A stretch of DNA of 64,000 nt from Candidatus Binataceae bacterium (lineage in GTDB: Bacteria; Desulfobacterota; Binatia; Binatales; Binataceae). How positions within the stretch are numbered: the stretch's first letter is position 1; every line of letters begins with the position of its first letter. Shown piece after piece: positions 13,792 through 47,828 of this stretch. Made by a program: the position numbers and the translations under genes. The notes below the pieces were generated by a model that had not been told where the DNA came from, made no database searches, and saw nothing but the letters and a program-made list of their open reading frames with translations. Where the stretch lies: positions 73,450 to 137,449 of the forward strand of contig CAVWAA010000010.1 in NCBI GenBank assembly GCA_963752805.1, written 5' to 3'.

Positions 13792-15267
13792 TCACTTTTG
13801 CACATTCCGCACGGTTCTTGGCTCCTTTCGGTCGGGCGCAGCGCTTTCGCCCACTGCTGAGGGGTGCTCGACCCGATGCAGCAGAGATTCACCCGGGGAA
13901 GGGTCGGGTGCGCCGAATTGGTCGCGCAGCCACTTTTCGCTCACCCGCAATCCGCGATCTACCGCGGGTCCAAGTCCTGCCATCAGTTCGGTCAGGTCGG
14001 CCTTCTCATTAAACCCAATACTGATTTGCGGGTAACGGCGCCGCGGTCCTCGATTCAGATCGATCAGCGGCTTCACCAGGTCGCGACTCAGCGTCGCAGC
14101 TACCCGGCGCGCATCGTCGGTAGCGATGTCCCTGCGCACCACGTCATGCACTTCGGCCGCCGCCCGGCTCCCCGCGCCGCGCGGCAACGAGGTCGTCAGC
14201 TCCTGCCCGAGCACCCCGATCGTCACCATCTTGTCGATGTACATGCACAGCTTCTCGTACATCTCATGCGACGCCTGCCCGCCACCCCTCGACTCTCGAC
14301 AAACTCAATCGCCATCGACTCGGGAATAATCGCGGCCGCGTCAGTGCCGATATTCGCCACCGCCCGCAGCAGCGCCGCCTTGTCAGCCTCCGTGGCGCCC
14401 GGCCCGTACTTGCCGAGCCGCATCGGCTGGCCGTAGACCTCGGCGAACACCACCCAATCTTTGAGCACGTAATTCTTGAAGAGGTAAGCCCAGATTGCGA
14501 TCCGCGCGAGGCCGCCGCGAATCGGCAGCCCCGCCTTGGCCCGCGTGATATGCGTGATGAACTTGAACGGCGCCAACGGCGAGGTCGCCGGCTGAATCCC
14601 GATCTGCTGCGCCGCCGTGCCGGCTGCGCACCCGCAGATTCATCGGTGACAAACGCGAGTCCCACGATTCGCGCCCGACCGGCAATTGCGGACCTAATTC
14701 CGCCGTCCCGCTGAGCGTGCGCACCAGCAGTTGTTCTCCAGAGACCCAGTCGAACATGAACCATCGCGGGTCGCGCCACTTGAGCGCAAACGGCAGCCAA
14801 TACGGCGCGCCCGTCTGCACATTCACCCCGTCGAAGTCCCAGATTATTTCGGTCGCGCTGAAGCCCTTGCCCAGCGCATCGAGCATCTCGAACACCACGT
14901 CGTGCAGGTCCACCTGCGACGAGTCAATCAGGATGTCGCGGATAAACTCGGAATCCTCGATTGACTGCGCGTCATCACCCGCTGCCTGCACGTCGATATC
15001 GAGCTGCGACACCGCCATCTTCCGCGTATGCAGCACGCCCTGGTAGAGCAGATCCTTTTCTTCCATCCGCTCCGCCAGCTCAAGGTAAAGCCAGGGGTCG
15101 CCAAACTCCGCCGTGCGCAGAATCCCGGCCACCTTCTCGGGGGTGAGCCCAATCGACTCGTCGATAATCGAATAGATGTTGCGGATGCCGAGCAGGGTAG
15201 GCGCCGCCTGCTCCTCCCGCAAAGCCTCGATCACAATCGGCCGCCCATATGCATCAAGCAATGGCAT
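13792..15267 (-). pseudogene. Mu gp29-like portal protein (DUF935 family), split over three reading frames
   Basis: Three track ORFs join into one DUF935-type sequence. 14383..15288 gives MPLLDAYGRPI..EKVAGILRTAEFGDPWLYLELAERMEEKDLLYQGVLHTRK..FALKWRDPRWFMF. 14223..14576 gives ..APFKFITHITRAKAGLPIRGGLARIAIWAYLFKNYVLKDWVVFAEVYGQPMRLGKY. 13792..14262 gives ..YEKLCMYIDKMVTIGVLGQELTTS... Frame changes lie near 14590-14650 and 14265-14285. Confidence 0.8.
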
Positions 15268-15433
15268 TATGAAGTCACCCCTCGTCACCGCATCAGGCTA
15301 CCCCGCTGGTGTGCAAAGTCTCCCTGGTCACGGGGAGAGTTTTGGTTACCCTCGCACGGCTGTAGCCGTTCATCTCTTGCTTAAAACCTCCGCGCCTGAC
15401 AGCGCGGAGGAATGTCAGAGCCGCACTGCTTCT

Positions 15434-16142
15434 TCATCTCCCATCCACCGTCAGAAAATAAGTGTTGCTGCTTGCGATATACTGCACCGTCACCCGGTCA
15501 ACGCAGCTGTTCGCCGTGCACGCGTTCGCCGGATAATCCGCCAGCGAATCGGGACACGTGCCGCTGGGGCAGACCAGGCTCGCGCCGCCCCCCGCACTGA
15601 ACGTCCACGTATCAATCACCCCGCTCGCCGGCTGGGTCAGATTGTAACTATGAGTGAGGTTCGGCCCCGAGGTCGAACCGAAACTCAGCACCGTCGCCGC
15701 GTTCGCGCCATTCCCGCATAGCGTGTAATTGTGCTCGTTCTGGCTGCCGCTGTCGGTGCCGCCGCTGTAGCAGGAATTAGCCGACGCATTGAAGCCGAGC
15801 TGGTTCAGGGTCTGCACGCTGCTCGGCGTCGACCCGCACGACCATTGCCCGTTCACCCCCAAGGCAAACGCGCCCGTGCCGCCGCCGGCGCAGGGAGTGC
15901 CGTTCGCCCCGTCGGTGACGTAGTACATCTGGCCGTTGGTGACGATCGCGGGGAGCTGGTAGAAGAAGATGTGCACGATCTGCGGCGCAATCGTGTCCTG
16001 GCCATTGAGCTTCGAGTTGATCGCATTGCGAAACTGCTGCCCCGCCAGATTCCCGTTGAAGTTCGGAATCGGATTGTACTGAGCAGTGCACCACGCCCGA
16101 CGAGCACAGCAGGATCATGAGCGCGAGCAGCGTTTCTGTCAT
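15434..16142 (-). pseudogene. Secreted Cys-rich protein of unknown function; signal peptide and mature part in different frames
   Basis: ATG 16142 gives MTETLLALMILLCSSGVVHC (signal peptide). The mature part (TAQYNPIPNFNGNLAGQQFRNAINSKLNGQDTIAPQIVHIFFYQL.. = track ORF 15434..15976) is in the +1 frame and has no start of its own. The ATG lies inside the terminus of MITE copy M1. Confidence 0.45.
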
Positions 16143-16320
16143 CCCGACAGAGCCGGAGCGCCAGCGAGGCGACGAGGGATCAACGCGAAGCGATTCAGTG
16201 CTCGATGCGCGCAAGGGATCTCCGCGAAAGGAACAGCAGGCTGCCGGTTCAGATTGCTTGGCAGCTCGCTCGGCAGCATTGTCACGCTTCGCTTGCCCCT
16301 CGGCTGCGCACGGGGTGACA
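16137..16320. mobile_element. MITE-like element M1 (~185 bp, TGTCAYCCCGA.. termini)
   Basis: tgtcatcccgacagagc..atcaacgcgaagcgattcagtgctcgatg..ggctgccggttcag..cggctgcgcacggggtgaca. Its left terminus contains the ATG of the signal-peptide gene (16142). Confidence 0.8.
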
Positions 16321-17260: not shown

Positions 17261-17889
17261 TCAATACCCCAGCGCCACCCAGCCGATTCCCGGTCAGCCC
17301 CACTGTTCCGTTCGGAGCATAGGCAATCGTCGGAAACCCGCCGCTCGCCCCGGTCAGCCACCCCATCTGATTATTCTGCTTTTGCAGCGGCGTGATCGGC
17401 ATGAAGGTAATCTCGGGCTGGTTGCTCCCGCCTGCGTTGTTCGATTCCGCATAGGCCGACAGCACCCACACCGCATTGGGAAAGGCTATCGGGAAGCTGA
17501 AGGGAAACAGACATCGGCGGCTTATTCGACGATCCGCCGTAGGGCAGCACGGAAATCGTGCCCCATTGAAGGATCGGATATATCTGCCCAAGATTCACAT
17601 CGTTGGAACTGAGCTTCATCCATCCATTGAGCCCGACTGCCGAAGTGAGCGTGAGTATGGTTTGCAGCGCGGATATGTTCGCTTCATCGGCGAGCTGATT
17701 CTTGTGCAGGAGCTGGGCCTTGTTCAGCAGCGCCTGATGAGGCTGGTTGTCCACTCCGAGCCCGGCGAACGAAGCGCCAGTCGCCGCCCCCTCGCTCTGG
17801 TCGGTCTGCGGAATCTGGTACACGTCGCCGTCAGTCCAGACGTAGGAATTATTCGCCTGCAGATAAACTGTGCCAGTCGGATTAGGCAT
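17256..17889 (-). pseudogene. Tail fibre protein, tandem copy A (frameshifted)
   Basis: MPNPTGTVYLQANNSYVWTDGDVYQIPQTDQSEGAATGASFAGLGVDNQPHQALLNKAQLLH (conserved fibre N-terminus) ..GLNGWMKLSSNDVNLGQIYPILQWGT. It then continues in another frame (track ORF 17256..17591) as FPFSFPIAFPNAVWVLSAYAES.., a gp53-like fibre C-terminal pattern. Confidence 0.65.
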
Positions 17890-17890
17890 C

Positions 17891-17965
17891 TCTTTCTGTC
17901 ACTCTCGCATCTCTTTCTGTCACCCTCGCGTGGCTGCCGCGAAGGGTCCCGCGTCTTCGCTCATC
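17891..17965. repeat. R-family element R1 (TGTCACCCTCGCG.. type)
   Basis: ctgtcactctcgca..ctgtcaccctcgcgtggctgccgcgaagggtcccgcgtcttcgc. Confidence 0.75.
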
Positions 17966-17977
17966 TCAGATTCTCGG

Positions 17978-18058
17978 TTCGCTCCGCTGTGCGCACGTCC
18001 AATAGGCCCTTGCGGGCCGTTCGGCAGACTCCTTAGCTGCGGCTCCGCTGCGCTACAC
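17978..18058. repeat. C-module copy C1
   Basis: ttcgctccgctgtgcgcacgtccaataggcccttgcgggccgttcggcagactcct..gcggctccgctgcgct. Confidence 0.8.
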
Positions 18059-18068
18059 GACTATGCTC

Positions 18069-18739
18069 TCACATGCTCACTGCCCACGTCCCCGAGAAAT
18101 TCCCTCCGCCCGTGTACGGAAACGCCGGCACCACCACATGCGCGATCATCGGAGTCGGCGCCGTGCTCTTCGCCACCAGCGTCCATACCGCCGTGTTATC
18201 TGTGGTCGTCGTCCCAATCACCGTGGACCAGGTCGGATGCGCCCCGCCCGAGGTCCCTGCCGGTAGTGCAGCGCTGAATATTCCCATTCGAATCGGCGAT
18301 CAGATTGCCCACCACGTAGGGATTGGCTGGCCGCCCAAGCCGGATTCGCCGTGCCGATCGCGGCGGGCAGATTCACTCCGCCGGTATTGCCGAACAGCCC
18401 CATCTCCGCGATTGTCAGCGGATTCGCCGCATAGTCAGCCGTCACCAATGAGTAGGCGAATTGCACGGTGCCCGCCGCGATCCCGCCGCTCGGACCGATG
18501 GTCACTGTACCAACCGCGTTGTAGTAAGCGGGATTCGTCGCCAGCGCGGTGTCGGTCGCCAGCGGCCCGGTGCTGCCCGATCCGAAGCCCACCGAGGCAA
18601 CGAACTGCCCAGCGGTCACGCCGCCCAGCAAACTCGCGAGCGCAGTGAGGCCGCCATTGACAACGAGGTTCTCCCGCTCCCAAAGCAACCTGCCGCGCCA
18701 CCAGCACGGCCCTTCGTACAGTCTGACTATGCCCCTCAC
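18069..18739 (-). pseudogene. Fibre / receptor-binding-like protein with a C-terminal GT(S/T)G..P.W..G.T..D.T..W repeat; two frameshifts
   Basis: GTG 18739 is preceded by AGGAGAAAATTG. ..ENLVVNGGLTALASLLGG..FGSGSTGPLATDTALATNPAYY.., then by own translation PYVVGNLIADSNGNIQRCTT in a second frame and AGTSGGAHPTWSTVIGTTTTDNTAVWTLVAKS in a third (track ORF 18069..18287). The joined motif matches the repeat inserted in the sheath. Confidence 0.5.
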
Positions 18740-18750
18740 CAATTTTCTCC

Positions 18751-18828
18751 TAGTAGAACAGGCTTTAGCCTGTTGGTTCTCTTTCTCCTGACTTTTAAAG
18801 ACCACAGGCTAAAGCCTGTGCCACCTCA
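18751..18828. repeat. Twin-hairpin element H1 (left arm degenerate)
   Basis: ..aacaggctttagcctgtt..ccacaggctaaagcctgtgccac. Confidence 0.7.
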
Positions 18829-19162
18829 GAACGTCGGGTGGGGTCTTCGCCCCCTCCAGCACATGTTTGCAATGATCCGGTGACAGTGCGTCCAACGCTG
18901 CGCAGAGCGCCTTCGCCACCGGGTCGCCGGCCGCCGCGCGGGTCGCTATATTCCACGATATCGTATGCGCCGGGTCATCAAACAGAATGCCGCTGCCGGC
19001 GCGGTCGAGCAGCCACAACTCCAGGTACAAGTTCGGATCGTTGGCTTCGATCCACCCCAACAACCCGCCCCAATTATCTGGCGAGGGTGCAGCGCCGAGT
19101 CGTTGCGTCAGCAACTCTTTGACCAGCGGATCCATCGGCCTAGGAGTATTAGGAACAACCAT
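18809..19162 (-). CDS. Hypothetical protein (117 aa)
   Basis: Intact ORF with AGGGAGGAAAATTAAATG supplied by the edge of twin-hairpin copy H2. No family recognised. Confidence 0.5.
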   Translation of the reverse strand: MVVPNTPRPMDPLVKELLTQRLGAAPSPDNWGGLLGWIEANDPNLYLELWLLDRAGSGILFDDPAHTISWNIATRAAAGDPVAKALCAALDALSPDHCKHVLEGAKTPPDVLRWHRL

Positions 19163-19177
19163 TTAATTTTCCTCCCT

Positions 19178-19240
19178 AGTGGCACAGGTTCCAGCCTGTG
19201 TTTTTCTCTTTAAAGACCACCGGCTAAAGCCGGTGCCACT
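19178..19240. repeat. Twin-hairpin element H2
   Basis: agtggcacaggttccagcctgtg..caccggctaaagccggtgccact. Confidence 0.85.
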
Positions 19241-19483
19241 TCAGAACGTAGACACCGAAATCGCCGCCGCCAGGACTGCCGCCGCCCCGGCGAACATCGA
19301 CATATCAGTGTGCTGCGTCGGAATCGTCTCGGCCTTGCCATCCTTGATGCATGCGGTAAAGGTCTCAGCCGAAATCACATCCGGATGAATCTTGGTGGTC
19401 CGGCAATCGTTACCGGCAAGGTCGGTGAAGTTCACTTCCTTGACCCGCGCACATCCGGAGGCGCACAACAGCACAAGCAGCAA
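19241..19483 (-). CDS. Putative small lipoprotein
   Basis: If translation starts at TTG 19483 (after GGAGCAATTAAAATC from repeat C2) the product begins MLLVLLCASGCARVKEVNF.. (lipobox-like ASGC). The upstream part of track ORF 19241..19591 is repeat-derived. Confidence 0.35.
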   Translation of the reverse strand: MLLVLLCASGCARVKEVNFTDLAGNDCRTTKIHPDVISAETFTACIKDGKAETIPTQHTDMSMFAGAAAVLAAAISVSTF

Positions 19484-19568
19484 GATTTTAATTGCTCCGC
19501 TGACGCTCCGCTGTGCGCACGTCGCAGACTCCTTTGCTCGCTCCGCGCGGGGACGCGCTCCGCTAGTG
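19484..19568. repeat. C-module copy C2 (short form)
   Basis: gattttaattgctccgctgacgctccgctgtgcgcacgtcgcagactcctttgctcgctccgcgcgg..gctccgctagtg; starts right after the gpI-like stop. Confidence 0.8.
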
Positions 19569-20435
19569 CTAATGCGCAATCGGCACTCCATTTCTTGTCA
19601 GCGGCCCATCGGCCACGTGCGGCTCGTTCTGCCCGTAGGTAATCCCCGCGTGGTAATAACGCAGGTTCCAGTACGGCACGATCGGCTTGGTATCCGCGAT
19701 CGGGAAGAACGGCGCGCTGATAAAGTCGCTTGGCGCCGGTAACAAAAAGTCATGCTGCGTGAAAATATTCGTCAGCCGGTCGCTTATCGGCGGAATCAAG
19801 GTGTCAAACAGCCGCCAGCCGAATTGCACGCTATCCAGCCAGCAGCGCGCCGGCTTCCAGAAATTGCAGATTGCAGCTACCCGCGCGGCCAGCGTGCTCA
19901 ATTCTGTGCCCGGCGGCACCGTCGATAAGTCAATCAGCACCCGGAACACCGCCCATCCTTCGTTCGACGGCCAAGTGGTGCCGCCCCAGCTGTTCTGCCC
20001 CTCCTGCACAATCGCGTTGGGATAGCCGAGCCCAGCCAGCGCGTTCTTCAGTCCTGCCACCGATCCCATCAACGAATGGAGCGCGGTGCTGAGCTGGATC
20101 AGCGTCCGATACTGCGCATAACTCTGCTGCAGAGTGGGCGTCTCCGCCCCCTCGGCCTGATACTGCAACAGGTCGAGATTAATCAGCGTGTCGATTCCGC
20201 TGACCGGGTCCCAGCCCGGAAAGGCGAGCGTGATAATCTGCGACAGCTCGGGCAGCAGCAGGGGATTCAATACGTCCCAGTCCCACGCCATAGGAAGAAC
20301 CGCAGAATCCACCAGCGACGGAATCCGGTAGACCAGGATCGGCGACAGGTCAAGATCGCCGAGCCGTTCGATCAAATCCAGATGCGCCTGCGAGCGCGCA
20401 TCATTGATCGAAGGCTGCATTTGAAGCTCAGCCAT
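19569..20435 (-). CDS. Phage tail protein I (P2 gpI-like)
   Basis: ..SQAHLDLIERLGDLDLSPILVYRIPSLVDSAVLPMAWDWDVL.. is the Tail_P2_I N-terminal pattern. It lies downstream of the gpJ-like gene as in P2 and Mu. Confidence 0.75.
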   Translation of the reverse strand: MAELQMQPSINDARSQAHLDLIERLGDLDLSPILVYRIPSLVDSAVLPMAWDWDVLNPLLLPELSQIITLAFPGWDPVSGIDTLINLDLLQYQAEGAETPTLQQSYAQYRTLIQLSTALHSLMGSVAGLKNALAGLGYPNAIVQEGQNSWGGTTWPSNEGWAVFRVLIDLSTVPPGTELSTLAARVAAICNFWKPARCWLDSVQFGWRLFDTLIPPISDRLTNIFTQHDFLLPAPSDFISAPFFPIADTKPIVPYWNLRYYHAGITYGQNEPHVADGPLTRNGVPIAH

Positions 20436-20443
20436 TATTCCTT

Positions 20444-20490
20444 ATTTGTCACCCTCGCGTGTCTGGCGCGAAGCGTCCCGCGTCTGCGCT
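20444..20490. repeat. R-family element R2 (half)
   Basis: tttgtcaccctcgcgtgtctggcgcgaagcgtcccgcgtctgcgctc; read as the C-terminus of ORF 20449..20730. Confidence 0.7.
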
Positions 20491-20730
20491 CTTCAAGGAC
20501 TCCAATCCCTTCGTGCTTATCTGCCATTTGCCGCGCGCGGAGCCGGCCTCCACCAGCCCTTTGCGTTTGAGCCCCACTAGGCATGCGGTGGTGGCGTCTT
20601 TGGTCGCCGAGCCGCAGACGCGAAACACCTCATCGACCGTGCAATCCGGATCGCCACCACTCGACTGCGACTCAGCGAGGTAGCGCAAAATCCGCGTTGC
20701 AACCCGCCGCCCGCCCCATTGGCTTGCCAT
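20449..20730 (-). CDS. Small winged-helix-like protein inserted between gpJ and gpI
   Basis: 93 aa. ..RILRYLAESQSSGGDPDCTVDEVFRVCGSATKDATTACLVGLKRKGLVEAG..WQISTKG resembles a wHTH. The last ~12 codons are read from repeat R2. Confidence 0.45.
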   Translation of the reverse strand: MASQWGGRRVATRILRYLAESQSSGGDPDCTVDEVFRVCGSATKDATTACLVGLKRKGLVEAGSARGKWQISTKGLESLKSADAGRFAPDTRG

Positions 20731-20744
20731 TACTTACACTCTGA

Positions 20745-20796
20745 AGTGGCACCGGCTTTAGCCGGTGGTCTTTCAAGAGAAGAAGCCTGTGCCACT
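20745..20796. repeat. Twin-hairpin element H3 (right arm truncated)
   Basis: agtggcaccggctttagccggtg..agcctgtgccact. Confidence 0.8.
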
Positions 20797-22166
20797 CAAG
20801 AGTGCTCCGTCCCAATCAGCTGCGTTAGTGTAATCGCCGTGCAATTCGCCCATTGACCGGCAGTCAACTGAGTATAACTCGGCTGTGTCAATTGTACTCT
20901 ATACACCCCCGGCACTGAACCTATCGCCGCGATAATCTCCTCCGGCACGATGTCTCTTTGAATCCTATTCGCTATGTTCTGCGCGAATTGACCCGCCGCG
21001 GTGTTCGCCGCCGACATCGTCACCCCCGGATCGGCATCAGAGTAAAGTGTCACCGTGCCGACGATCGTGTAATTTACTTCGGTCACCGCGAGCGCATTTA
21101 CGGTGTCGGTCAGCGGCCGAATCGCATCCGAATTGACGATCGCAGCCACCTTGCCGAGAATCACGCTCGACGCCACTCCCGACGTATTCGGCGAGACCGC
21201 CGGCTGCGTCACCGGGCCCATCAGCACGTACACGTTCACCGTCCCCGGCACCGGAGTCGTCACCAGCACGTCCACGATTCCAGGGTCGGCCGACAAGGCC
21301 CAGAAGCGGTAGGCGCCCACCGGCCCGGCCACGCTGAAGCGGTTTGGCGCCGCCTGAATCCGGTCCCGCAGATGGGCATCGGTCTCGATATTGCCTCCGC
21401 CGCTGGTGACGGTGGTATTAGTCACTGCGCTAATCAGCGTGTTCGGATTGAGCTGCACACTCACCTGGCCGACCGCGTAATTGTTTGCCGCCGCGCCGGG
21501 AGTGGTGCAGACCGCGCTTGCCACGCCGACTGTTGCTCCTGCCGGAATAATCAGATCCTGCAGCAGCGCGAACGTAAACACGCCGTCCTGGGTGCCAACC
21601 AGGGTCGCCGATGGAATATCGAAATCGAACGGCTGGGCTGCTGCCAGCGTGAATTGCAGCGTGCAGCTTGCCCCCTGCGCCGGCAGCCGCGTCACCCCCA
21701 GCAACTGCCCCAGATAGTCGAGCATGGGATAGGCCGCGAACGCCACGAGGCACTGCATGGCCGCGTACTGGATCGCATTGCGGACTAAGGATTCGCGGTA
21801 GGCATAGAGGTCGATCAGCAACCGCTCGACTTGCGCCGGATAGAGCGTGCGGCCCGCGAGAGATTGGAAGGACGCGATCATGTCATTGAGTATCAGGTTA
21901 GGGTCGAGTCCATCCGCGTCGTTGACAAAATTCGGTATGGGAAGCGAGACAATGCCGGTCGGCAGCGACACCACTTCGAGCACCGCCACGCAGGTCCAGC
22001 CGCCGGTGCCGTCGGCCGTGAACGCACCCAGCACGCTGCCCCAATTCGGTGGAATCGCCCCGGTAGAACCGGGCGTGCTGCTCCACTGCTGCACATTGGA
22101 GTTAGGGTCAATGATGACCTTCCCCGCAGCAACGGGCGCATTCGGCGACCAGGCAGGATTAGGCAT
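20796..22166 (-). CDS. Baseplate protein J (gpJ-like) with an N-terminal repeat-motif extension
   Basis: ..DAHLRDRIQAAPNRFSVAGPVGAYRFWALSADPGIVDVLV.. is the Baseplate_J core. The N-terminal ~65 aa (GKVIIDPNSNVQQWSSTPGSTGAIPPNWGSVLGAFTADGTGGWTCVA) carry the same motif as the sheath insertion. Confidence 0.85.
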   Translation of the reverse strand: MPNPAWSPNAPVAAGKVIIDPNSNVQQWSSTPGSTGAIPPNWGSVLGAFTADGTGGWTCVAVLEVVSLPTGIVSLPIPNFVNDADGLDPNLILNDMIASFQSLAGRTLYPAQVERLLIDLYAYRESLVRNAIQYAAMQCLVAFAAYPMLDYLGQLLGVTRLPAQGASCTLQFTLAAAQPFDFDIPSATLVGTQDGVFTFALLQDLIIPAGATVGVASAVCTTPGAAANNYAVGQVSVQLNPNTLISAVTNTTVTSGGGNIETDAHLRDRIQAAPNRFSVAGPVGAYRFWALSADPGIVDVLVTTPVPGTVNVYVLMGPVTQPAVSPNTSGVASSVILGKVAAIVNSDAIRPLTDTVNALAVTEVNYTIVGTVTLYSDADPGVTMSAANTAAGQFAQNIANRIQRDIVPEEIIAAIGSVPGVYRVQLTQPSYTQLTAGQWANCTAITLTQLIGTEHS

Positions 22167-27947: not shown

Positions 27948-28116
27948 TGTCACCCCGAGCGAAGTCGAGGGGTCGACGCGCAGCGATTCAGTGCTCGATG
28001 CACGCTTGCGCGCCGATCGGTTTGAACCAGCAGGCTGCCTGTTCAAATTGTTTGGCGACCAACCTGGCGGCATTGCCGCGCTCCGCGTTGTTTCCTCGGC
28101 TGCGCTCGGAATGACA
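27948..28116. mobile_element. MITE-like element M2
   Basis: tgtcaccccgagcgaagtcgaggggtcgacgcgcagcgattcagtgctcgatg..ggtttgaaccagcaggctgcctgttcaaattg..cctcggctgcgctcggaatgaca. Confidence 0.85.
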
Positions 28117-28162
28117 AAACCAAAGCCGGAAGGTAGGGTGGGGGTCGTCGTCTGCATCTTTC

Positions 28163-33560: not shown

Positions 33561-33769
33561 CAGCGGAGCCGAGGAATCAACGCGAAACGGTAGCGGCGAT
33601 ATCGCCAGGCGGGTTGCCAAACAATTTGAACTGGCAGCCTTCTGGTTCAAACGGATCGGTGCGGAGCGTGCAATCGAGCACTGAATCGCTTCGCGTTGAC
33701 CTCTCGGCTGTGCTCGGGGTGACATCAGAAGAGCCAAAACGTTGATCTCGGCTGCGCTCGGAATGACAG
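33561..33769. mobile_element. MITE-like element M3 (opposite orientation, one terminus truncated) plus an adjacent solo terminus
   Basis: cagcggagccgaggaatcaacgcgaaacgg..caatttgaactggcagccttctggttcaaac..gaatcgcttcgcgttgacctctcggctgtgctcggggtgaca, then gttgatctcggctgcgctcggaatgacaga (33741-33769). Confidence 0.75.
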
Positions 33770-33771
33770 AA

Positions 33772-34754
33772 TCATACCTTTCGCACCTCCACTTCGGTCG
33801 TATAGCCTGTGCTGCGCTCCAGCCGGTGCTTGCTTGATTCGATGTGATACTTGCCGTCGAATGCCGAAGCCCTGTAGCGCGTTGACGCCGGCGGCCAGCA
33901 GAATCGTCCCCTCCGTCTCGATTCGGCCGGTCACCTGGTCCTTGTTCGCATCGTGCAGCGCGCTGTCCGCCTTGAGCTGTGCATGCTGCGGCGTTTCGCA
34001 GCGCGTGACGATATGCAGATCGTCGCCAGTAGGGACGGAATCAACGCCTCTCGCCTCCGACTGCGCGCGATCAATTGCTTCTTCGGCGGATTCTGATAGG
34101 CCACCGTCGCACTCCGGTAGATTTGCTGGGTGCGGGTCTTAAATTCGAAGCTCTTGGCGATCCGAAGGAAGGGCGGAATTGGTTCTGCTAAAGAGTCAGC
34201 ACAGGCGCCGCCTGCTCCAGCGGCGTCCGCGCATAGAAGATGAGCTGCGTCCCCCGAACCGAGAAATCATAATTGTGTGCAACCGCAATGCGCCGCAGGA
34301 AATACAGATCGGTCTCATTGTGCTGGGTCAGCCGCGACCAGGTAACGTTGATGTTGGCGGGGGCGCCGGTTACCGTCATTCGATGCCGGCTGGCGACCGT
34401 GCCCGCGACCTGGAGCAGGGTCTGCGATTCATATGCCGCGCTCCTGGGGGTGCGAATCGACGGCGTGATGCCCGCGGCGATGCACTTCAAATGAAACGTA
34501 TCGGGCGGCCCCTTCAGCTCCAGTTCGTCCACCTGAAAATCACCGCAGTTGAGCAGCTCCTCGCCGTCGTAACCGATCAGCAGAGTGACGATATCGCCGC
34601 ACACCGGGAACCACGGTCCCTGCCATCGGCGGTCGCGGTCCTCCAGCGTCACTGCGACTTCGTCACTGACGTGGGCTATTTTGTCGACGTAGCTGATCTC
34701 AGTCACCATCCCGGAAACGTCCGCCGTGATATTCACTCCCGAGTAAGTCAGCAC
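33772..34754 (-). pseudogene. Tail protein D (P2 gpD / Mu gpP-like), frameshifted
   Basis: VLTYSGVNITADVSGMVTEISYVDKIAHVSDEVAVTLEDRDRRWQGPWFPVCGDIVTLLIGY..CGDFQVDELELKGPPDTFHLKCIAAG..QHNETDLYFLRRIAVAHNYDFSV is the Phage_GPD pattern. The C-terminal part is scattered over other frames (..GRIETEGTILLAAGVNALQGFG then FDGKYHIESSKHRLERSTGYTTEVEVRKV, stop 33772-33774). Confidence 0.75.
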
Positions 34755-37198: not shown

Positions 37199-37720
37199 TC
37201 AAATCGCGCCGATGTTGGCGCGGAATTGCGCTAGCTGATCGACCCCGTTGACCACGTACATATTCGCCATCAGGTCGTACAGCAGGAACTGCACTCCCCC
37301 GATGTAGTATTCGCAATGATAGACCACCAGCGTGGTGGGGAAATCGACCTGCTCATGCTGCTTGAAGTTGAGCGGGCCGCCGTCTTTGAATTGCGCCGTC
37401 ATCAGTCCGATGAATGGCACTTCCGCGGTTCGCCCCTGCGAGGTGTACATCTCTTTCGATGCGCGAATCTGGAACTGATGCGACGCGAAAATCGACATAT
37501 TCGCCATCACTTCCTCGTACACGCTAATCCACTTGAGCTTGGCTTCGAGCTTGTCGATGCCCGCGGGAAACTCGCCGGTGCCGAACATCCCGAGGCCCTT
37601 GTGGTCAACCATCTTGGCCTTGGGGAAGGCCAGCTCCACCTCTTCGGCCCGGCCGAGCAGGGAAGAGCCGTCCATATAGATATTGGCGTTGGTGATGCGC
37701 GAGACGTTAATAAGTGCCAT
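37199..37720 (-). CDS. Major tail tube protein (P2 FII-like)
   Basis: MALINVSRITNANIYMDGSSLLGRAEEVELAFPKAKMVDHKGLGMFGTGEFPAGIDKLEAKLKW.. is the Phage_tube (FII) pattern. It lies directly downstream of the sheath gene. Confidence 0.85.
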   Translation of the reverse strand: MALINVSRITNANIYMDGSSLLGRAEEVELAFPKAKMVDHKGLGMFGTGEFPAGIDKLEAKLKWISVYEEVMANMSIFASHQFQIRASKEMYTSQGRTAEVPFIGLMTAQFKDGGPLNFKQHEQVDFPTTLVVYHCEYYIGGVQFLLYDLMANMYVVNGVDQLAQFRANIGAI

Positions 37721-37862: not shown

Positions 37863-40034
37863 TCATCCAGTCGCGGCCGCCGTGGTTCCTGCGGTGCTCG
37901 CGGCCCCGGTCAGGGCCGACAGCAGGGTCGTGTCAATAAATACGTTGAAGGTCAGCCGCTCGGCCGGCGGCGGCGGCATGCAATCGATATCGAAGACCAG
38001 CTGCCCCGCGGCGATTTGCGATGGCGGATTTTCTGCTGGATTATAACTCGCGGTGCCTGCGACCAGCGCGCCGCGTCCGATCAGCACGCGGATAAAGCTG
38101 TTGACGCTGGCGAGAATCGTCGTGATCAGCGCGTTCGAAATCGGCTGGTCGAGGAACTGCATCATCGAGAGCATCACGCTCTGCTCGATCACGTCCATCG
38201 TGCGGCGAATCGGGATAAAGACGTCGGGCGTGGTGTAGGACGGAAAGCCCGCGCTGCGATTGCCCCACACCCGGATGCCGGTGCCGAAGGCCTGGAACGC
38301 AGTGAGTATTCCCTGGCTATTGAGCACATTGGTGTCGCTGGCCGAATCGATGAAGCTCGAATAAACCGAGACGTCAGGCCCGAGCACGCCGATAATCTGC
38401 GTATTCGACGGCGACCACCAGTATCCCTGCGCCAGGTCCTTGGCCGAGGTTGCGCCTGCGACCCACGGCGACAAAGGGCCCGCATGAGTGAGGTTGGCAA
38501 TCGTCTGAATCGCCTTGCCGGCGATTGGATCGACTCCGATTCCGGTCGGCACGATTCCGCTGTCGAGAAACAGTTGCTGCGGGCCGCAGAGGACCGCGCG
38601 CTTGTCGCTGGTATTGAACGAATTGCCCGAAGCGCCCCGATTCGAAAGCAACGTCGCCGGCGAGCTGCCCGCCGGACAATCGACGAAGTACATCGCGCGC
38701 ATCGCGACGGCCACCGCCGCCATCCCGGCCGCCACCGTCGCATCCTGCGATCCGGCCGTCTGCCCGGAGGCAACGTAAGCGCCAAAGCTCGGCGCGATCA
38801 GCAGCTTGGGAAAGAAACCCATCAGGCCGTAGCTGAGCTTCCAGCATTGCATCCCGGTGTAGACGTTGCCGGTGACATTGCCGACCAGGTCGCTGTCCGC
38901 CAGCTTGCTTGGGTCCGCATAATTGCAGCTAAGCTTGACGCTCTGTCCTGCGGTCAGCAGTCCGCCGCCGGTCGCAGTGATGACGCCGTTGACGCGGTCG
39001 ACAGTGAAGTCCGCGCCCTCGACGTAAGTGGTTGTTCCCGCCGAGTTGGTGAGCTTGATCGTGGACAGCCCCATGTGGCCGACGTTGATCGTCTGCGCTC
39101 CCGATGCCGGGAACGCATAGATGACTGCGGTGAGCGTCGAGTAATGTTTGGTCTGGTCGAAGACGTTGACCGTTATCGCCTGCCCCGCGCCCTGCGCGAA
39201 GACCTGATTGAGCGCATAGGGAATCGTGAAGCCCTGAATCAGCGGGCCGAAGGTGCCTGACTGTCCCGGCGCCAGCGAGTTCGGATTCGACCCCGCCACC
39301 AGCATGGGGGTCTGGAGATTTGCAATCGGCCCCTTTGCTGTGAGCGTCCAGGTGATGCTGCCGGTCGCCGTGGCGATAGTGTCGGTCGCTGTGTTGCCGA
39401 CGATTGTTGCCCAGGTCGGCGCCGCCGTGGCGCTGGTTATCGCCGCCTTGCCGATAGCGACTAAGGTCCAAGTGACCGTGCCATCGACGACCGTCGCGCC
39501 GAGCGCGGTCGGCCATACCGGCCCTGCGCCGGTAGTTCCTGCGGTAGTGCAGCGCTGCGTATTGCCGTTGGTATCGAGCACCAGGTTGCCGGCCACATAC
39601 GCGGTTGTCGCGGCCCAGTTCGGCAGCGTGATCGCAGTCGCGGTCTGGATATTGCCGTTGCTGTCGATACATTGCTGGCCAGCCGCCGCGCCGATCGCGA
39701 CCAGCGTCCAGACCGTGGTGCCGTCATTCGTAGTAGCGCCGAGTGTGCGCGCCCAAGCCGGCGTCGTAGTGCCGGTGGTGCCGGCGGTGGTGCATTTCTG
39801 AGTATTGCCGTTCGCATCGACGATCAGATTGCCGACGAGTTCTGCGGTTGAAGCGCTCCAGGCCGGAGCCGCCTGCACCAGCCAGGACAAATCCCATAGC
39901 GGCAAGGCGCCGGGGACGGCAAACAGGGGAGCCGATCCGACCAGCCCGATGACCGCGGAGTTGACGACATTGATCGGAACCGGTCCGAGATTGAACTCGA
40001 AGACCTCGACCCCGTGGAGGAAACTAGCTGGCAT
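37863..40034 (-). CDS. Contractile tail sheath protein with a ~195-aa repeat insertion near the N-terminus
   Basis: MPASFLHGVEVFEF..VIGLVGSAP start. C-terminal ..GIRVWGNRSAGFPSYTTPDVFIPIRRTMDVIEQSVMLSMMQFLDQPISNALITTILASVNSFIRVLIGRGALVAG..AGQLVFDIDCMPPPPAERLTF is the sheath C-domain pattern. Residues ~41-236 are 3-4 copies of a G.L..D.NGN.Q.CTTAGTTG..P.W....GAT..DGTV.WTLVA motif. Confidence 0.85.
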   Translation of the reverse strand: MPASFLHGVEVFEFNLGPVPINVVNSAVIGLVGSAPLFAVPGALPLWDLSWLVQAAPAWSASTAELVGNLIVDANGNTQKCTTAGTTGTTTPAWARTLGATTNDGTTVWTLVAIGAAAGQQCIDSNGNIQTATAITLPNWAATTAYVAGNLVLDTNGNTQRCTTAGTTGAGPVWPTALGATVVDGTVTWTLVAIGKAAITSATAAPTWATIVGNTATDTIATATGSITWTLTAKGPIANLQTPMLVAGSNPNSLAPGQSGTFGPLIQGFTIPYALNQVFAQGAGQAITVNVFDQTKHYSTLTAVIYAFPASGAQTINVGHMGLSTIKLTNSAGTTTYVEGADFTVDRVNGVITATGGGLLTAGQSVKLSCNYADPSKLADSDLVGNVTGNVYTGMQCWKLSYGLMGFFPKLLIAPSFGAYVASGQTAGSQDATVAAGMAAVAVAMRAMYFVDCPAGSSPATLLSNRGASGNSFNTSDKRAVLCGPQQLFLDSGIVPTGIGVDPIAGKAIQTIANLTHAGPLSPWVAGATSAKDLAQGYWWSPSNTQIIGVLGPDVSVYSSFIDSASDTNVLNSQGILTAFQAFGTGIRVWGNRSAGFPSYTTPDVFIPIRRTMDVIEQSVMLSMMQFLDQPISNALITTILASVNSFIRVLIGRGALVAGTASYNPAENPPSQIAAGQLVFDIDCMPPPPAERLTFNVFIDTTLLSALTGAASTAGTTAAATG

Positions 40035-40053
40035 TGTGTTTCACCGCCTCCTG

Positions 40054-40144
40054 TGTCACCCCGAGCCCAGCGAGGGGTCCAGGCAAATCGCTTCGCGTTG
40101 ATCCCTCGTCGCCTCGCTGGCGCTCTGGCTCTGTCGGGATGACA
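40054..40144. mobile_element. MITE-like element M4a (internally deleted, ~90 bp)
   Basis: tgtcaccccgagcccagcgaggggtcc..cgcttcgcgttgatccctcgtcgcctcgctggcgctctggctctgtcgggatgaca. Confidence 0.75.
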
Positions 40145-40158
40145 GAAGGGGCAAGAGC

Positions 40159-40326
40159 GTCACCCCGAGCGAAGCCGAGGGGTCAACGCGAAGCGGTTCA
40201 ATGCGCGATACGCGCTCTTGCGACGGTCCGTTTGAACCAGCAGGGTGCCGGTTCGAATTGTTTTGTGGCTCACCCGGCATCATGCTTCCGCTCCGCGTTG
40301 ATTCCTCGGCTGCGCTCGGAATGACA
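40159..40326. mobile_element. MITE-like element M4b (full length)
   Basis: gtcaccccgagcgaagccgaggggtcaacgcgaagcggttcaatg..gtttgaaccagcagggtgccggttcgaattg..gattcctcggctgcgctcggaatgaca. Confidence 0.85.
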
Positions 40327-40336
40327 GAACAAAAGC

Positions 40337-40552
40337 TCAATAGCGAAAATTGTAGTTATGCCCCCCGACGCCCGGAAAAATCCCGATGCACCCCAGAAAC
40401 CACAGCAACACCAGCAGCCCGACCAGGAGCTTGATCAGCACCCAGACTGGCGGCGGCAGAATCAGCAGCGAGGCGAAGGCCACCTGGACGATGTAGAAGA
40501 CGATCGTCAGCACAATCGCGATGATGATCAGGCCGATCAGACATTCAATCAT
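40337..40552 (-). CDS. Small two-TM membrane protein (holin candidate)
   Basis: MIECLIGLIIIAIVLTIVFYIVQVAFASLLILPPPVWVLIKLLVGLLVLLWFLGCIGIF.. The start follows GGAGCGAATTAAAA from repeat C4. Located in the lysis region between the head and tail modules. Confidence 0.45.
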   Translation of the reverse strand: MIECLIGLIIIAIVLTIVFYIVQVAFASLLILPPPVWVLIKLLVGLLVLLWFLGCIGIFPGVGGHNYNFRY

Positions 40553-40635
40553 TTTTAATTCGCTCCGCTTCGCTCCGCCGTGCGCACGTCGCAGACTCCT
40601 TTGCTCGCTACGCGCGCGGACGCGCTCCGCTAGTG
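40553..40635. repeat. C-module copy C4 (short form)
   Basis: tttttaattcgctccgcttcgctccgccgtgcgcacgtcgcagactcctttgctcgctacgcgcgcgg..gctccgctagtg; abuts the ATG at 40552. Confidence 0.85.
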
Positions 40636-40651
40636 TTTAAATCCGCTCTTT

Positions 40652-40678
40652 AGTGGCACAGGCTTTAGCCTGTGATTC
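40652..40678. repeat. Twin-hairpin element H8 (single arm)
   Basis: agtggcacaggctttagcctgtg. Confidence 0.75.
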
Positions 40679-40682
40679 TTCT

Positions 40683-43342: not shown

Positions 43343-44221
43343 TCAGTTATTCGGTGCGAACGGGACGCTGCCGCCGCTTGCTAATGCGGTCACTACGTCG
43401 CTGTACGCATAGCTGACCGCGACCGTCGCGCCGCTCGGGATTCCGCCGCTTGCATTCCGCATAATAATTCCGTTCACCCTATCCACTGAGTAGTCACTGC
43501 TCGCGATGTAGGTAGTGGCAAGGTCCGCGCTCTTGACGATCACCGCCGAAATATTTTGCTGCGGCAGGGTGATGCTACCCGGTGTTCCGGCGAACGTCAG
43601 TAAGACGGAATTAATTCCGTCCTCCTCTCCGACCTGTACTGCGGTCACGCCCGCCTCTTCCTGCGCCGTGCCCTTGATGAACAGCGGATAGTTGGGTAGC
43701 TGATAATTCTCGATTACGACCGTACGGGTGGCGAAGATGATCTCGTAGACCCAGACACCGCCCTGCCTATCGCGGTCGACGAAGCGTTCGCGGATTGCCT
43801 TCATCGGGGTGCATCCGGTATTCACCTGAAAGCCCAGCAGGGCGAGTCTGATCGCTTCCAGAATCTGGTAGGCCCCCGGACTCGTGCCGCTCGGCTGTCC
43901 GCCGAACGCCCACCCCAAATCACGAATCCGGAGGCCTACCGCAAACTCAAGCGTGCGCTCCTGCGCGACGTGGCCGATATCGAGAATTTCGCCGTAGTCG
44001 CCGCCCATATAGATGACCATCGCGACCCCGATGCGATGGCGCATTTCGTAGGCTTCGGGCTTGTCGGGGAAGTGGATGACTTCGATCATCTGCGATCCGA
44101 GCGCAGCGCCGAGATAAGTCTGCAACTGGGCGACAATCGCAGCCTCGATCGCCGCGATATCGAGCGGAGTGGCCGGACTGAAGGTCTGCCCGGTCCAGGG
44201 ACTATCAAGAAATGCTACCAT
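43343..44221 (-). CDS. Mu gp37-like protein (DUF1834) fused through an in-frame palindrome element to an extra C-terminal domain
   Basis: MVAFLDSPW..LDIAAIEAAIVAQLQTYLG..IEVIHFPDKPEAYEMRHRIGVAMVIYMGGDYG.. is the gp37 pattern (~195 aa). It is followed by VGEEDGINSVLL (P13) and an ~80-aa domain, ..YIASSDYSVDRVNGIIMRNASGGIPSGATVAVSYAY, resembling the sheath segment YVEGADFTVDRVNGVITATGGGLLTAGQSVKLSCNYA. Confidence 0.65.
   Translation of the reverse strand: MVAFLDSPWTGQTFSPATPLDIAAIEAAIVAQLQTYLGAALGSQMIEVIHFPDKPEAYEMRHRIGVAMVIYMGGDYGEILDIGHVAQERTLEFAVGLRIRDLGWAFGGQPSGTSPGAYQILEAIRLALLGFQVNTGCTPMKAIRERFVDRDRQGGVWVYEIIFATRTVVIENYQLPNYPLFIKGTAQEEAGVTAVQVGEEDGINSVLLTFAGTPGSITLPQQNISAVIVKSADLATTYIASSDYSVDRVNGIIMRNASGGIPSGATVAVSYAYSDVVTALASGGSVPFAPNN
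43599..43628. repeat. Palindrome element P13, in frame inside the gp37-like ORF
   Basis: agtaagacggaattaattccgtcctcctct; read as EEDGINSVLL. Confidence 0.9.
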
Positions 44222-44837: not shown

Positions 44838-45010
44838 TGTCACCCCGAGCGAGGCCGAGGGGGCAACGCGAAGCGATTCGGTGCTCGATACCGCATTCAG
44901 CGACGATCAGTTTGAACCAGCAGGCTGCCGGTTCAAATTGTTTGTCGGCAGCGCACCTCGCGACATTGCTTGCGCTTCGCGTTGATTTCTCGGCTCCGCC
45001 CGGAATGACA
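44838..45010. mobile_element. MITE-like element M5
   Basis: tgtcaccccgagcgaggccgagggggcaacgcgaagcgattcggtgctcgata..gtttgaaccagcaggctgccggttcaaattg..gatttctcggctccgcccggaatgaca. Confidence 0.85.
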
Positions 45011-45016
45011 CAAACA

Positions 45017-46832: not shown

Positions 46833-47828
46833 TTATGCGAGCCATTCGCTGACTATCAGGGTTGCGTCGTTCAGGTAGATATTCGCCACTGGGATCGCTG
46901 CTTGATCGCGCCACGCACCGCCGGTCGTCCTGCGCCGAAGGTCGCATGCAGGAGCTGCCTGGCAACCTCCTCGAGGGCTGGCGGCACTACCAGGAAACGT
47001 GTGGTCGGCGGCCCGTTCCAGGCGCCGAACGGCACGCCTGCGTCGCTCTTGATCCCGCGCAACGCTGCCACTGCGGCCCCGTAATTCGCCGGGTTCGAGA
47101 GGTCGGTATTGCTTGCATAGGTCAACTGCCACAGGCCGACGCCGGCGTTGCATCGCACGTCCACGCCGTAGCGGAACAGCCGCTGCGAGAATACCGCTTC
47201 GTCAGTCACGGTGTTCATCCGGCTCACTGCGTATTCGCGCCGCTTCTGGAAGATGAAGGGCTTGATCGGCCGCGCCCCGTCGACCAGGTACCAGTAGGGG
47301 CCGGTGCCGGTCGAATTGACGTTCGAGTAAGTGGCACCGGACGAGGATTCGCCCGCCAGTCCAGCCGGATGCGTTGCGTAGTAGAGATTGTTGCCGTCGT
47401 AGCAAATCGGCACCGGGATCGGTAATTTTGCCAATCGTCACAGGGGCCCCAGTGATCGCTGCCTTCATCATGCCGAAGACCAGTTGGTCGGGATGGGTCT
47501 TCGCGTCCCATCCGAGCAGTTCGACCGCCGGCGCATAGACGCCGTACTGGTCGTCTTCGATCCGTTCGCGCTCAAGGCTGATAGTGTCTTCGAAGGTCTT
47601 ATTGACGATAGTGTAGGTATGGGCTTCGAGCGTTTGCATTATCCGGTCGCCGACCCATTCGCGGAACCCGGTGGTGCGGCCGAGCCAGGGATAAATCGTC
47701 TGGCTGGTGGACGACGGCACGATCGAACAGATCTTGTCGTAGTAGGAGGGCGCCGCCTCGAAGCCCTTCTGAAAGATCATGTCGAACCCGGTGAAGAGGG
47801 TAGTGAGGTTTTGCGCAGATACTTCCAT
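46833..47828 (-). pseudogene. Major capsid protein, Mu gpT-like, split over three frames
   Basis: MEVSAQNLTTLFTGFDMIFQKGFEAAPSYYDKICSIVPSSTSQTIYPWLGRTTGFREWVGDRI.. (gpT N-terminus, track 47202..47828), then ..PIPVPICYDGNNLYYATHPAG..KPFIFQKRREYAVSRMNTVTDEAVF.. (track 46871..47434). The true C-terminus AIPVANIYLNDATLIVSEWLA is in a third frame (end of track ORF 46833..47153). Confidence 0.8.

Follow-up and report, generated by a model that had tools for sequence, protein, structure and literature searches.

Nested small beta modules in the tail sheath of a Binataceae prophage: a candidate outward-facing adhesion coat

What does a stretch of repeated, tryptophan-rich units do inside a contractile tail sheath? 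The question is raised by a prophage in a 64,000-nucleotide stretch of the genome of a Candidatus Binataceae bacterium (GenBank assembly GCA_963752805.1, contig CAVWAA010000010.1, positions 73,450 to 137,449), which was analysed as a whole and is referred to as the window. The tail sheath gene occupies positions 37863..40034 of the window on the minus strand and encodes an intact protein of 723 amino acids (aa), recognised by Pfam, PHROGs and Foldseek. Phage_sheath_1 (PF04984) was detected over aa 427-594 (45.1 bits against a cut-off of 31.4), Phage_sheath_1C (PF17482) over aa 607-700 (33.2 bits against 26.9), and phrog_23 'tail sheath' covered aa 237-719 (E 1e-73). The AlphaFold2 model of the full sheath, calculated with 81 homologues as input, had a mean predicted local distance difference test score (pLDDT) of 78.7 and a predicted template modelling score (pTM) of 0.75. 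Its top match among PDB structures in Foldseek was the sheath of the R2 pyocin (3j9r, E 6e-13, target-normalised TM 0.66), followed by the sheaths of contractile injection systems (CIS), T4 and A-1(L). A homologue with 99% identity has equal length. An earlier note on this DNA had placed an insertion of repeated units at 39327-39914; these coordinates correspond exactly to aa 41-236, and both peptides quoted there were found verbatim in the protein.

The segment of 196 residues lies between the N-terminal arm and the conserved body of the sheath. The arm with the first core strand (aa 1-40, 39915..40034, minus strand) is conserved in all orthologues, with invariant residues up to A39 in alignment A1. 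The comparison with orthologues lacking the segment, proposed in the earlier note as a check, was provided by proteins of 512 aa and by more distant ones. In the 512-aa orthologues the flanks '...GTAPAWAV' and '...SPTLVSS' are separated by only about 10 residues, so the segment of aa 41-236 is a true insertion. It is rich in Thr (22%) and Ala (18%), and 10 Trp occur in the 196 residues (5.1% versus 0.9% elsewhere in the protein).

A module hidden Markov model (HMM) built from the two complete units of the sheath (A and B) matched these at 39690-39869 (E 5e-36) and 39450-39626 (E 4e-35) and partial copies at 39633-39683 and 39330-39443. The insertion was resolved into three modules of about 55-60 aa, two of them intact (aa 55-114 and aa 135-194) and one present in three pieces (aa 41-54, 115-134 and 195-236), in place of the three to four tandem units of about 45 aa described before. 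A single degenerate "host" module is split in three, with the two complete modules nested in its loops. All parts are encoded on the minus strand. Host piece 1 (aa 41-54, 39873..39914, PGALPLWDLSWLVQ) aligns collinearly with the beginning of the lone module in orthologues of 575/590 aa. It is followed by the complete module A (aa 55-114, 39693..39872), which is confined to the class of about 720 aa and forms a clade with a support of 95. Host piece 2 (aa 115-134, 39633..39692, ..AGQQCIDSNGNIQTAT..) aligns to module positions 12-27, scores 18 bits alone and carries the signature AGQQ.ID.NGNIQ. The complete module B (aa 135-194, 39453..39632) is present in both the 658-671-aa and the about 720-aa classes, and host piece 3 (aa 195-236, 39327..39452, ..TSATAAPTWATIVGNTATD..GSITWTLTAKGP) aligns to module positions 31-55.

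The nested arrangement was also visible in the comparison with orthologues carrying one module. In the proteins of 575/590 aa the one module reads '..PLW(D/Q)....V.AGQQ.(I/V)D.NGNIQQ....AGTT....P.WAT.L..T..DGT..W.L..', and the sheath from the window keeps this signature, broken twice: 'PLWDLSWLVQA', the module of aa 55-114, 'AGQQCIDSNGNIQTATAIT', the module of aa 135-194, and 'KAAITSATAAPTWATIVGNTATD..GSITWTLTAKGP'. When the three host pieces were spliced, they gave a collinear match to the module profile at 24 bits, with pieces 2 and 3 each matching the expected half, whereas intact single modules score 63-80 bits. In the module tree, which has 59 columns only and is weak evidence, the spliced hosts fell together with the 'host' modules that stand alone in the 590-aa class (support 88-92), and the nested units A and B were placed with the modules of the fibre-like gene and not with the host module (support 86). 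This suggests that the fibre gene of the phage itself may have been the source of units A and B. The AGQQ.ID.NGNIQ and AAP.WAT signatures, the match of the spliced pieces and the module tree led us to reject a simple tandem-repeat reading. The 575/590-aa single module had initially been aligned with unit A by MAFFT; signatures, spliced match and tree place it with the flanking pieces. At the DNA level, units A and B share 69% identity, and the fibre copy is 74-78% identical over about 70 nt, so none of the module copying is recent; on the same values we rejected the idea that the sheath and fibre genes had lately exchanged the module by duplication or gene conversion.

The insertion was modelled as a folded domain consisting of strands only. 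The pLDDT was 85-95 within the full sheath model and 88.3 when the insertion was folded alone with its alignment, with no segment below 50. The module fold is thus predicted with high confidence as all-beta, and the disorder or low complexity that the earlier note had named as evidence against a defined repeat, to be looked for with AlphaFold, did not appear in the models.

The insertion has no own family in the copies of Pfam and NCBIfam searched, and it gave no match to an immunoglobulin-like (Ig-like) family; a module comprises about 55 aa with four strands per unit, versus about 90-100 aa of an Ig-like sandwich. It matched phrog_20658 (E 1.6e-12), the label of which, 'head decoration', is an annotation, and, with E 0.012, the Pfam carbohydrate-binding module (CBM) family CBM_5_12 (PF02839). 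A profile of 78 units compared with PDB sequences revealed the chitin-binding domain of Bacillus circulans chitinase A1 (ChiA1, CBM12; 1ed7) with E 0.001 and residues 494-545 of the cyanophage Pam1 tailspike (7eea) with E 0.02, the latter over profile positions 2-57, i.e., the whole module. Foldseek of the insertion model independently, and weakly, ranked 7eea first as well (E 0.025). This receptor-binding domain of the tailspike is the sole solved structure that matches the whole module; both matches are weak, and the segment is an element of a podovirus tailspike, whereas the module described here is inserted in a sheath. CBM5/12 domains and the module are both small and all-beta, and towards the N-terminus both follow W-x5-Y-x2-G-x2-(I/V)-x-(D)-NG-x2-(Q/Y)-x-C. 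Conserved Trp residues lie at module positions 4, 39 and 54. The second half of the module (AGTSG..P.W....G.TT.DG.V.W) is longer than in CBM5/12, with a conserved motif peculiar to it.

Multi-bead models are hard to align when the domains are tiny; more was learnt from the search of BFVD than from Foldseek against the PDB. The insertion matched pectate-lyase tailspikes, baseplate wedge proteins, tail fibres and a major tail protein, as well as a 'chitin-binding type-3' protein with E 0.09, and superpositions of single modules on the BFVD matches gave root-mean-square deviations of 1.3-3.4 A at 26-39% identity. There was no sheath, by description, among the top 50 BFVD matches.

An exhaustive profile search of 1.84 billion representatives revealed at least 3,389 proteins (50%-identity clusters) with the module at E<=1e-3. 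They reach lengths of 4,464 aa, carry up to 15 matched stretches each and are mostly tailspikes, fibres, baseplate and decoration proteins. A total of 71 of the 3,389 proteins were scanned for family matches. The phrog_20658 family was matched by 64 of them and CBM_5_12 by four (E<=1e-3, best 2.3e-7); the other Pfam partners were DUF2961, Beta_helix/pectate-lyase-like, Baseplate_J, Tail_P2_I, Gp80 fibre, a P22-type stabilisation protein and sheath. Among the 10 top-scoring proteins, all longer than 900 aa, six have no Pfam family, save one sub-threshold match to BNR_2. Deposited phages with the module include Tunturiibacter phage Tunturi_3 (tail protein), Bacillus phage PK1 (beta-helix protein) and Glutamicibacter phage Voltaire, in which it is located at the C-terminus of the major capsid protein. 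In our reading the module is an offshoot of the CBM5/12 (chitin-binding type 3) kind that has diverged and is not curated, and that phages shuffle among exposed virion proteins; we do not claim proper membership in CBM5/12. The fibre-type repeat with possible glycan binding, as suggested in the earlier note, has in this way gained a relation to a carbohydrate-binding family and partners such as pectate-lyase, beta-helix and DUF2961 domains, and the glycan binding itself stays at the level of a suggestion.

Two other tail genes of the same prophage carry the module. The gene of a gpJ-like baseplate wedge protein of 456 aa (20796..22166, minus strand; Baseplate_J at aa 147-414) has one N-terminal module at nt 21981-22157 (E 1.3e-11). 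The fibre-like gene (18069..18805, minus strand), which matches phrog_5417 and, weakly, phrog_4176 'tail fiber protein', has one module at nt 18171-18318, the two parts of which lie in different reading frames (E 6e-7 and 7e-8). A same-genus genome (G002) has an intact frame of 282 aa for this protein, and its tblastn search on the window returned three collinear pieces in three frames, which indicates that the gene in the window is broken twice, near 18320 and 18258. The sharing of the motif between the sheath, the N-terminus of gpJ and the fibre-like pseudogene, already noticed from the letters alone, was hereby confirmed by the module HMM, which gave no further significant match in the window or in the 3.38-Mb genome.

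The number of modules in the sheath varies among orthologues. In 120 sheath homologues, no module was present in proteins of 507-532 aa or in two proteins of 584 aa with an unrelated insert, one was present in those of 566-595 aa, two in those of 657-671 aa and three in those of 706-738 aa, all at one and the same site of the sheath. In the 658-aa class only the second (B) of the nested modules is present. One protein (P0057) and a more distant one (P0167) have tandem module arrangements instead of nested ones, so this loop of the sheath is a hot spot to which modules were added several times and in different ways. In a tree of the sheath body, from which the insertion columns had been removed, the three-module class formed one clade and at least eight changes of module number were needed. 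Of the cluster representatives with a complete N-terminus that were placed on this tree, 110 in all, 42 share the three-module architecture, the most distant at 67% identity. Two side observations concern other parts of these proteins. The module-free sheaths of 584 aa (P0109 and P0120) carry a different insertion of about 72 residues resembling a duplication of the Ig-like region, which means that the sheath surface has been elaborated at a second site too. The homologue of 805 aa (P0014) has a basic C-terminal tail of about 80 residues unlike the others, probably a read-through into a downstream repeat element and not a real extension.

One pair of homologues showed that the module is dispensable. 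From about residue 106 onward, the one-module protein P0061 (575 aa) and the module-free P0092 (508 aa) are identical at 454 of the 470 aligned residues (97%), and beyond about residue 136 no difference is seen, so the sheath body functions with or without the module. The first 40 residues of the two proteins are only 68% identical, and the pair is the product of a recombinational swap of the N-terminal sheath segment. Codon comparisons with three close relatives (91-96% aa identity) gave ratios of non-synonymous to synonymous substitutions (dN/dS) of 0.125-0.157 for the insertion and 0.08-0.10 for the core. These values point to clear purifying selection on the insertion, only slightly relaxed relative to the core.

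Of the 40 relatives surveyed in the lineage, 24 share the family of the present genome and 16 belong to other families of its class. The module was present in 13 of the 24 Binataceae genomes and in none of the 16 others. The sheath family was found in 17 genomes, including the one studied, and sheaths with the module only in the three genomes of its genus. Four of the 16 gpJ orthologues have the module; the other 12 begin to align at residue 59-72 (11 of them at residue 67-72). The fibre-like protein (roughly 220-340 aa) carries it in more genomes, in some of which both the sheath and gpJ are module-free. Such a gradient, with the fibre most often, gpJ less often and the sheath least often equipped, suggests that the module may have spread from the distal end of the tail upward. 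The placement of the module in a sheath is not unique to this lineage, as a protein of 324 aa (P0200) combines a CIS-type sheath N-terminus, matching 9ezm, 8bky, Pvc2 and Afp2, with two modules. This protein, probably cut by a contig end, represents an independent acquisition in another sheath lineage.

Sheaths with additional domains have been described before. Extra domains are common, mostly Ig-like, located away from the tube, extending outward and not needed for contraction; they were proposed to aid adhesion or stability, and multi-domain sheaths were tied to large phage genomes (Evseev et al. 2022, PMC9230969). The extra domains of the AlgoCIS sheath extend outwards as well (PMC8894135). 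In addition to the core, the AlphaFold2 model has confident beta domains at aa 41-236 and about 296-376, and with these additional compact domains the protein fits type 3 of Evseev. As in the type 3 sheaths of T4 (gp18), phage 812 and AlgoCIS (Alg2) (PMC9230969), the conserved core is made of N- and C-terminal parts and the beta-rich extras follow the N-terminal part. The extras of the type 3 sheaths are mostly Ig-like sandwiches of about 100 aa, whereas those found here are modules of about 55 aa resembling CBM5/12 and arranged as a nested triple. Unlike in the type 3 sheaths described, their number varies from zero to three among close orthologues, and the phage is small, with roughly 35-40 kb of phage-like genes in the window. 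The decoration of the sheath is less unusual than the earlier note had supposed, given the outward domains known from other sheaths, the sheath's own Ig-like domain and the CIS-type sheath with the same module. What is new in comparison with the known decorated sheaths is the fold of the added unit, the nested triple, the polymorphism of zero to three copies and the small size of the phage.

The sheath modules probably form an outward-facing adhesion coat, in which many weak glycan-binding sites would allow reversible adhesion; we hold this explanation with some confidence and well short of certainty. Outward orientation, sugar binding, ligand and benefit are what we infer, the orientation by analogy with solved sheaths and the sugar binding from the family relations of the module. 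In the proposed course of events, the sheath of a prophage with a Mu-like head and a P2-like tail has acquired three Trp-rich all-beta modules of about 55 aa in the loop after the N-terminal arm. The host module would have entered this loop first, and two further complete modules would have been inserted later into its own loops, after module positions of about 10 and 27. The modules are accessory, as the contractile core works without them, and would point away from the tube, so that each of the hundreds of sheath subunits would display three sites of weak glycan binding. With gpJ and the fibre-like protein contributing their own copies, the tail could gain multi-site, reversible adhesion to polysaccharide of the host surface or matrix, which may raise the chance of the baseplate finding its receptor. 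Glycan adhesion is favoured over lattice cementing and fibre docking because of the family relations of the module and its partner domains.

Several observations weigh against the adhesion coat. The match of the insertion to CBM_5_12 stayed at 16.1 bits, below the gathering score of 26.2, and that of the unit profile to 1ed7 was limited to module positions 3-34, the first part of the module. Foldseek of the insertion model gave no significant match in the PDB (best E 0.025), with the chitinase ChiB (1e6r) at E 1.0. A CBM-like fold does not guarantee binding to the host, since the CBM of the A-1(L) neck fibre did not bind it (PMC10966104). The host of the present prophage is uncultured, and the copy in the window looks partly decayed and may therefore yield no particles.

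The modules could instead act as a structural cement, contacting neighbouring subunits and stabilising the extended, metastable tail in the manner of decoration proteins or disulfide networks, without binding any sugar. Of the two roles put forward for extra domains of sheaths, one is stabilisation (PMC9230969), the sheath of phage Milano shows that extra inter-subunit links can evolve (PMC10811340), the module family bears the label 'head decoration' in PHROGs, and each complete module has a single unpaired Cys (C81 and C162), with C122 in a host piece. However, cementing of a lattice makes no sense on the fibre-like, tailspike, baseplate and enzyme proteins that also carry the module, chitin-binding domains are among its relatives, and near-identical sheath bodies occur with and without it; we regard this role as unlikely. 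Less likely again is a docking surface, by which the modules on the sheath, gpJ and the fibre-like protein would bind each other or a common partner and keep the fibres folded back up to the encounter with the host. The module does occur on three proteins of a single tail, and A-1(L) provides a documented case of fibres that fold back along its sheath (PMC10966104), but most of the related prophages have the module on the fibre-like protein and gpJ and none on the sheath, so the module works without a sheath partner.

The insertion might also serve no function, having accreted as a mobile piece of coding sequence that a permissive loop tolerates and that is left to drift. Repeated gains, losses and recombinational swaps would fit such a course, as would the degenerate state of the host module (24 bits against 63-80 for intact ones). 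We disfavour it as very improbable in view of the dN/dS of 0.13-0.16, close to that of the core, the confident fold prediction and the persistence of the three-module architecture in 42 of the 110 representatives, down to 67% identity. A chimeric contig or misjoined repeats would be conceivable in a metagenome-assembled genome of 34 contigs and 70% completeness with frameshifts in neighbouring genes. Independent assemblies from ENA, JGI, NCBI and Logan nevertheless show the same architecture at 89-99% identity, and the two units, only 69% identical in DNA, are too diverged for misassembly, which leaves an artefact of assembly or annotation with hardly any probability.

The second accessory domain of the sheath is Ig-like (aa ~296-376, 38907..39149, minus strand) and was recognised through matches to phrog_807, NF052337 and phrog_20240. 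Pfam PF27730 (UCP028589) is precomputed for many sheath homologues, but not for the closest full-length ones. The same Ig-like domain (PF27730; phrog_20240/phrog_807) occurs in the Gp37-like protein (43343-44221) and is a second module shared by two virion proteins. Phage Ig-like domains, such as that of T4 Hoc, resemble the module in being small and promiscuous domains of virion surfaces that have been shuffled between proteins of the capsid, tail and fibres and are thought to bind carbohydrates weakly, according to Fraser et al. 2006 as cited in PMC9230969. The module belongs to a different fold family, and the Ig-like role in the sheath studied is filled separately by aa ~296-376.

The tail tube gene (37199..37720, minus strand; Pfam Phage_tube, E 1e-34) lies directly downstream of the sheath gene. 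The 650-bp intergenic stretch upstream of the sheath gene (40035-40680) consists of dispersed repeats, copies of which, with 72-98% identity, are located between other structural genes of the prophage (27949-28126, 44839-45013, 33562-33723, 16134-16320 and 19486-19568). Close relatives combine a Mu-like head (protease, gpT, Gp36, Gp37) with a P2-like tail (sheath, tube, gpU, X, D, V). In the window the head, portal and gpD genes look truncated, the fibre gene is frameshifted and intergenic dispersed repeats are frequent, and the sheath gene is intact. The major head open reading frame (ORF) at 47202-47828 encodes 208 aa versus 399 aa in the 94%-related prophage locus L020, the portal fragment (14383-15288) encodes 301 aa and the gpD-like fragment (34188-34754) encodes 188 aa matching profile positions 197-375 only. 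The prophage may be decaying, or the assembly may contain indel errors. In L020 an ORF of 1,331 aa with no Pfam family (17599-21594) is located between the gpD-like and gpV genes, and the content of the window differs there.

A wider and frankly speculative extension of the adhesion coat, which we think unlikely, would see the whole tail as an organ of graded adhesion, assembled from copies of a single portable, lectin-like module that passed from the distal fibre-like protein to gpJ and on to every sheath subunit, where nesting multiplied it. Contraction would rearrange hundreds of sites, and the avidity for the polysaccharide layer of the host would change upon firing and help to draw the baseplate through a thick matrix or to set it free. 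The module would also stand for a family of virion lectins, so far uncurated and comparable in scale to the Ig-like domains.

The practical impact of these findings is modest, as the Binataceae are without cultured phage. The module is abundant, with at least 3,389 clusters, and has no own Pfam model in the copy searched; defining it would improve the annotation of receptor-binding and decoration proteins of phages. If true, the presence of whole modules inside a module of about 55 aa is an unusually compact case of domain-in-domain insertion. The natural alleles with zero, one, two and three modules on nearly the same sheath body constitute a ready-made experiment on adhesion versus stability, a question that is open in the sheath literature (PMC9230969).

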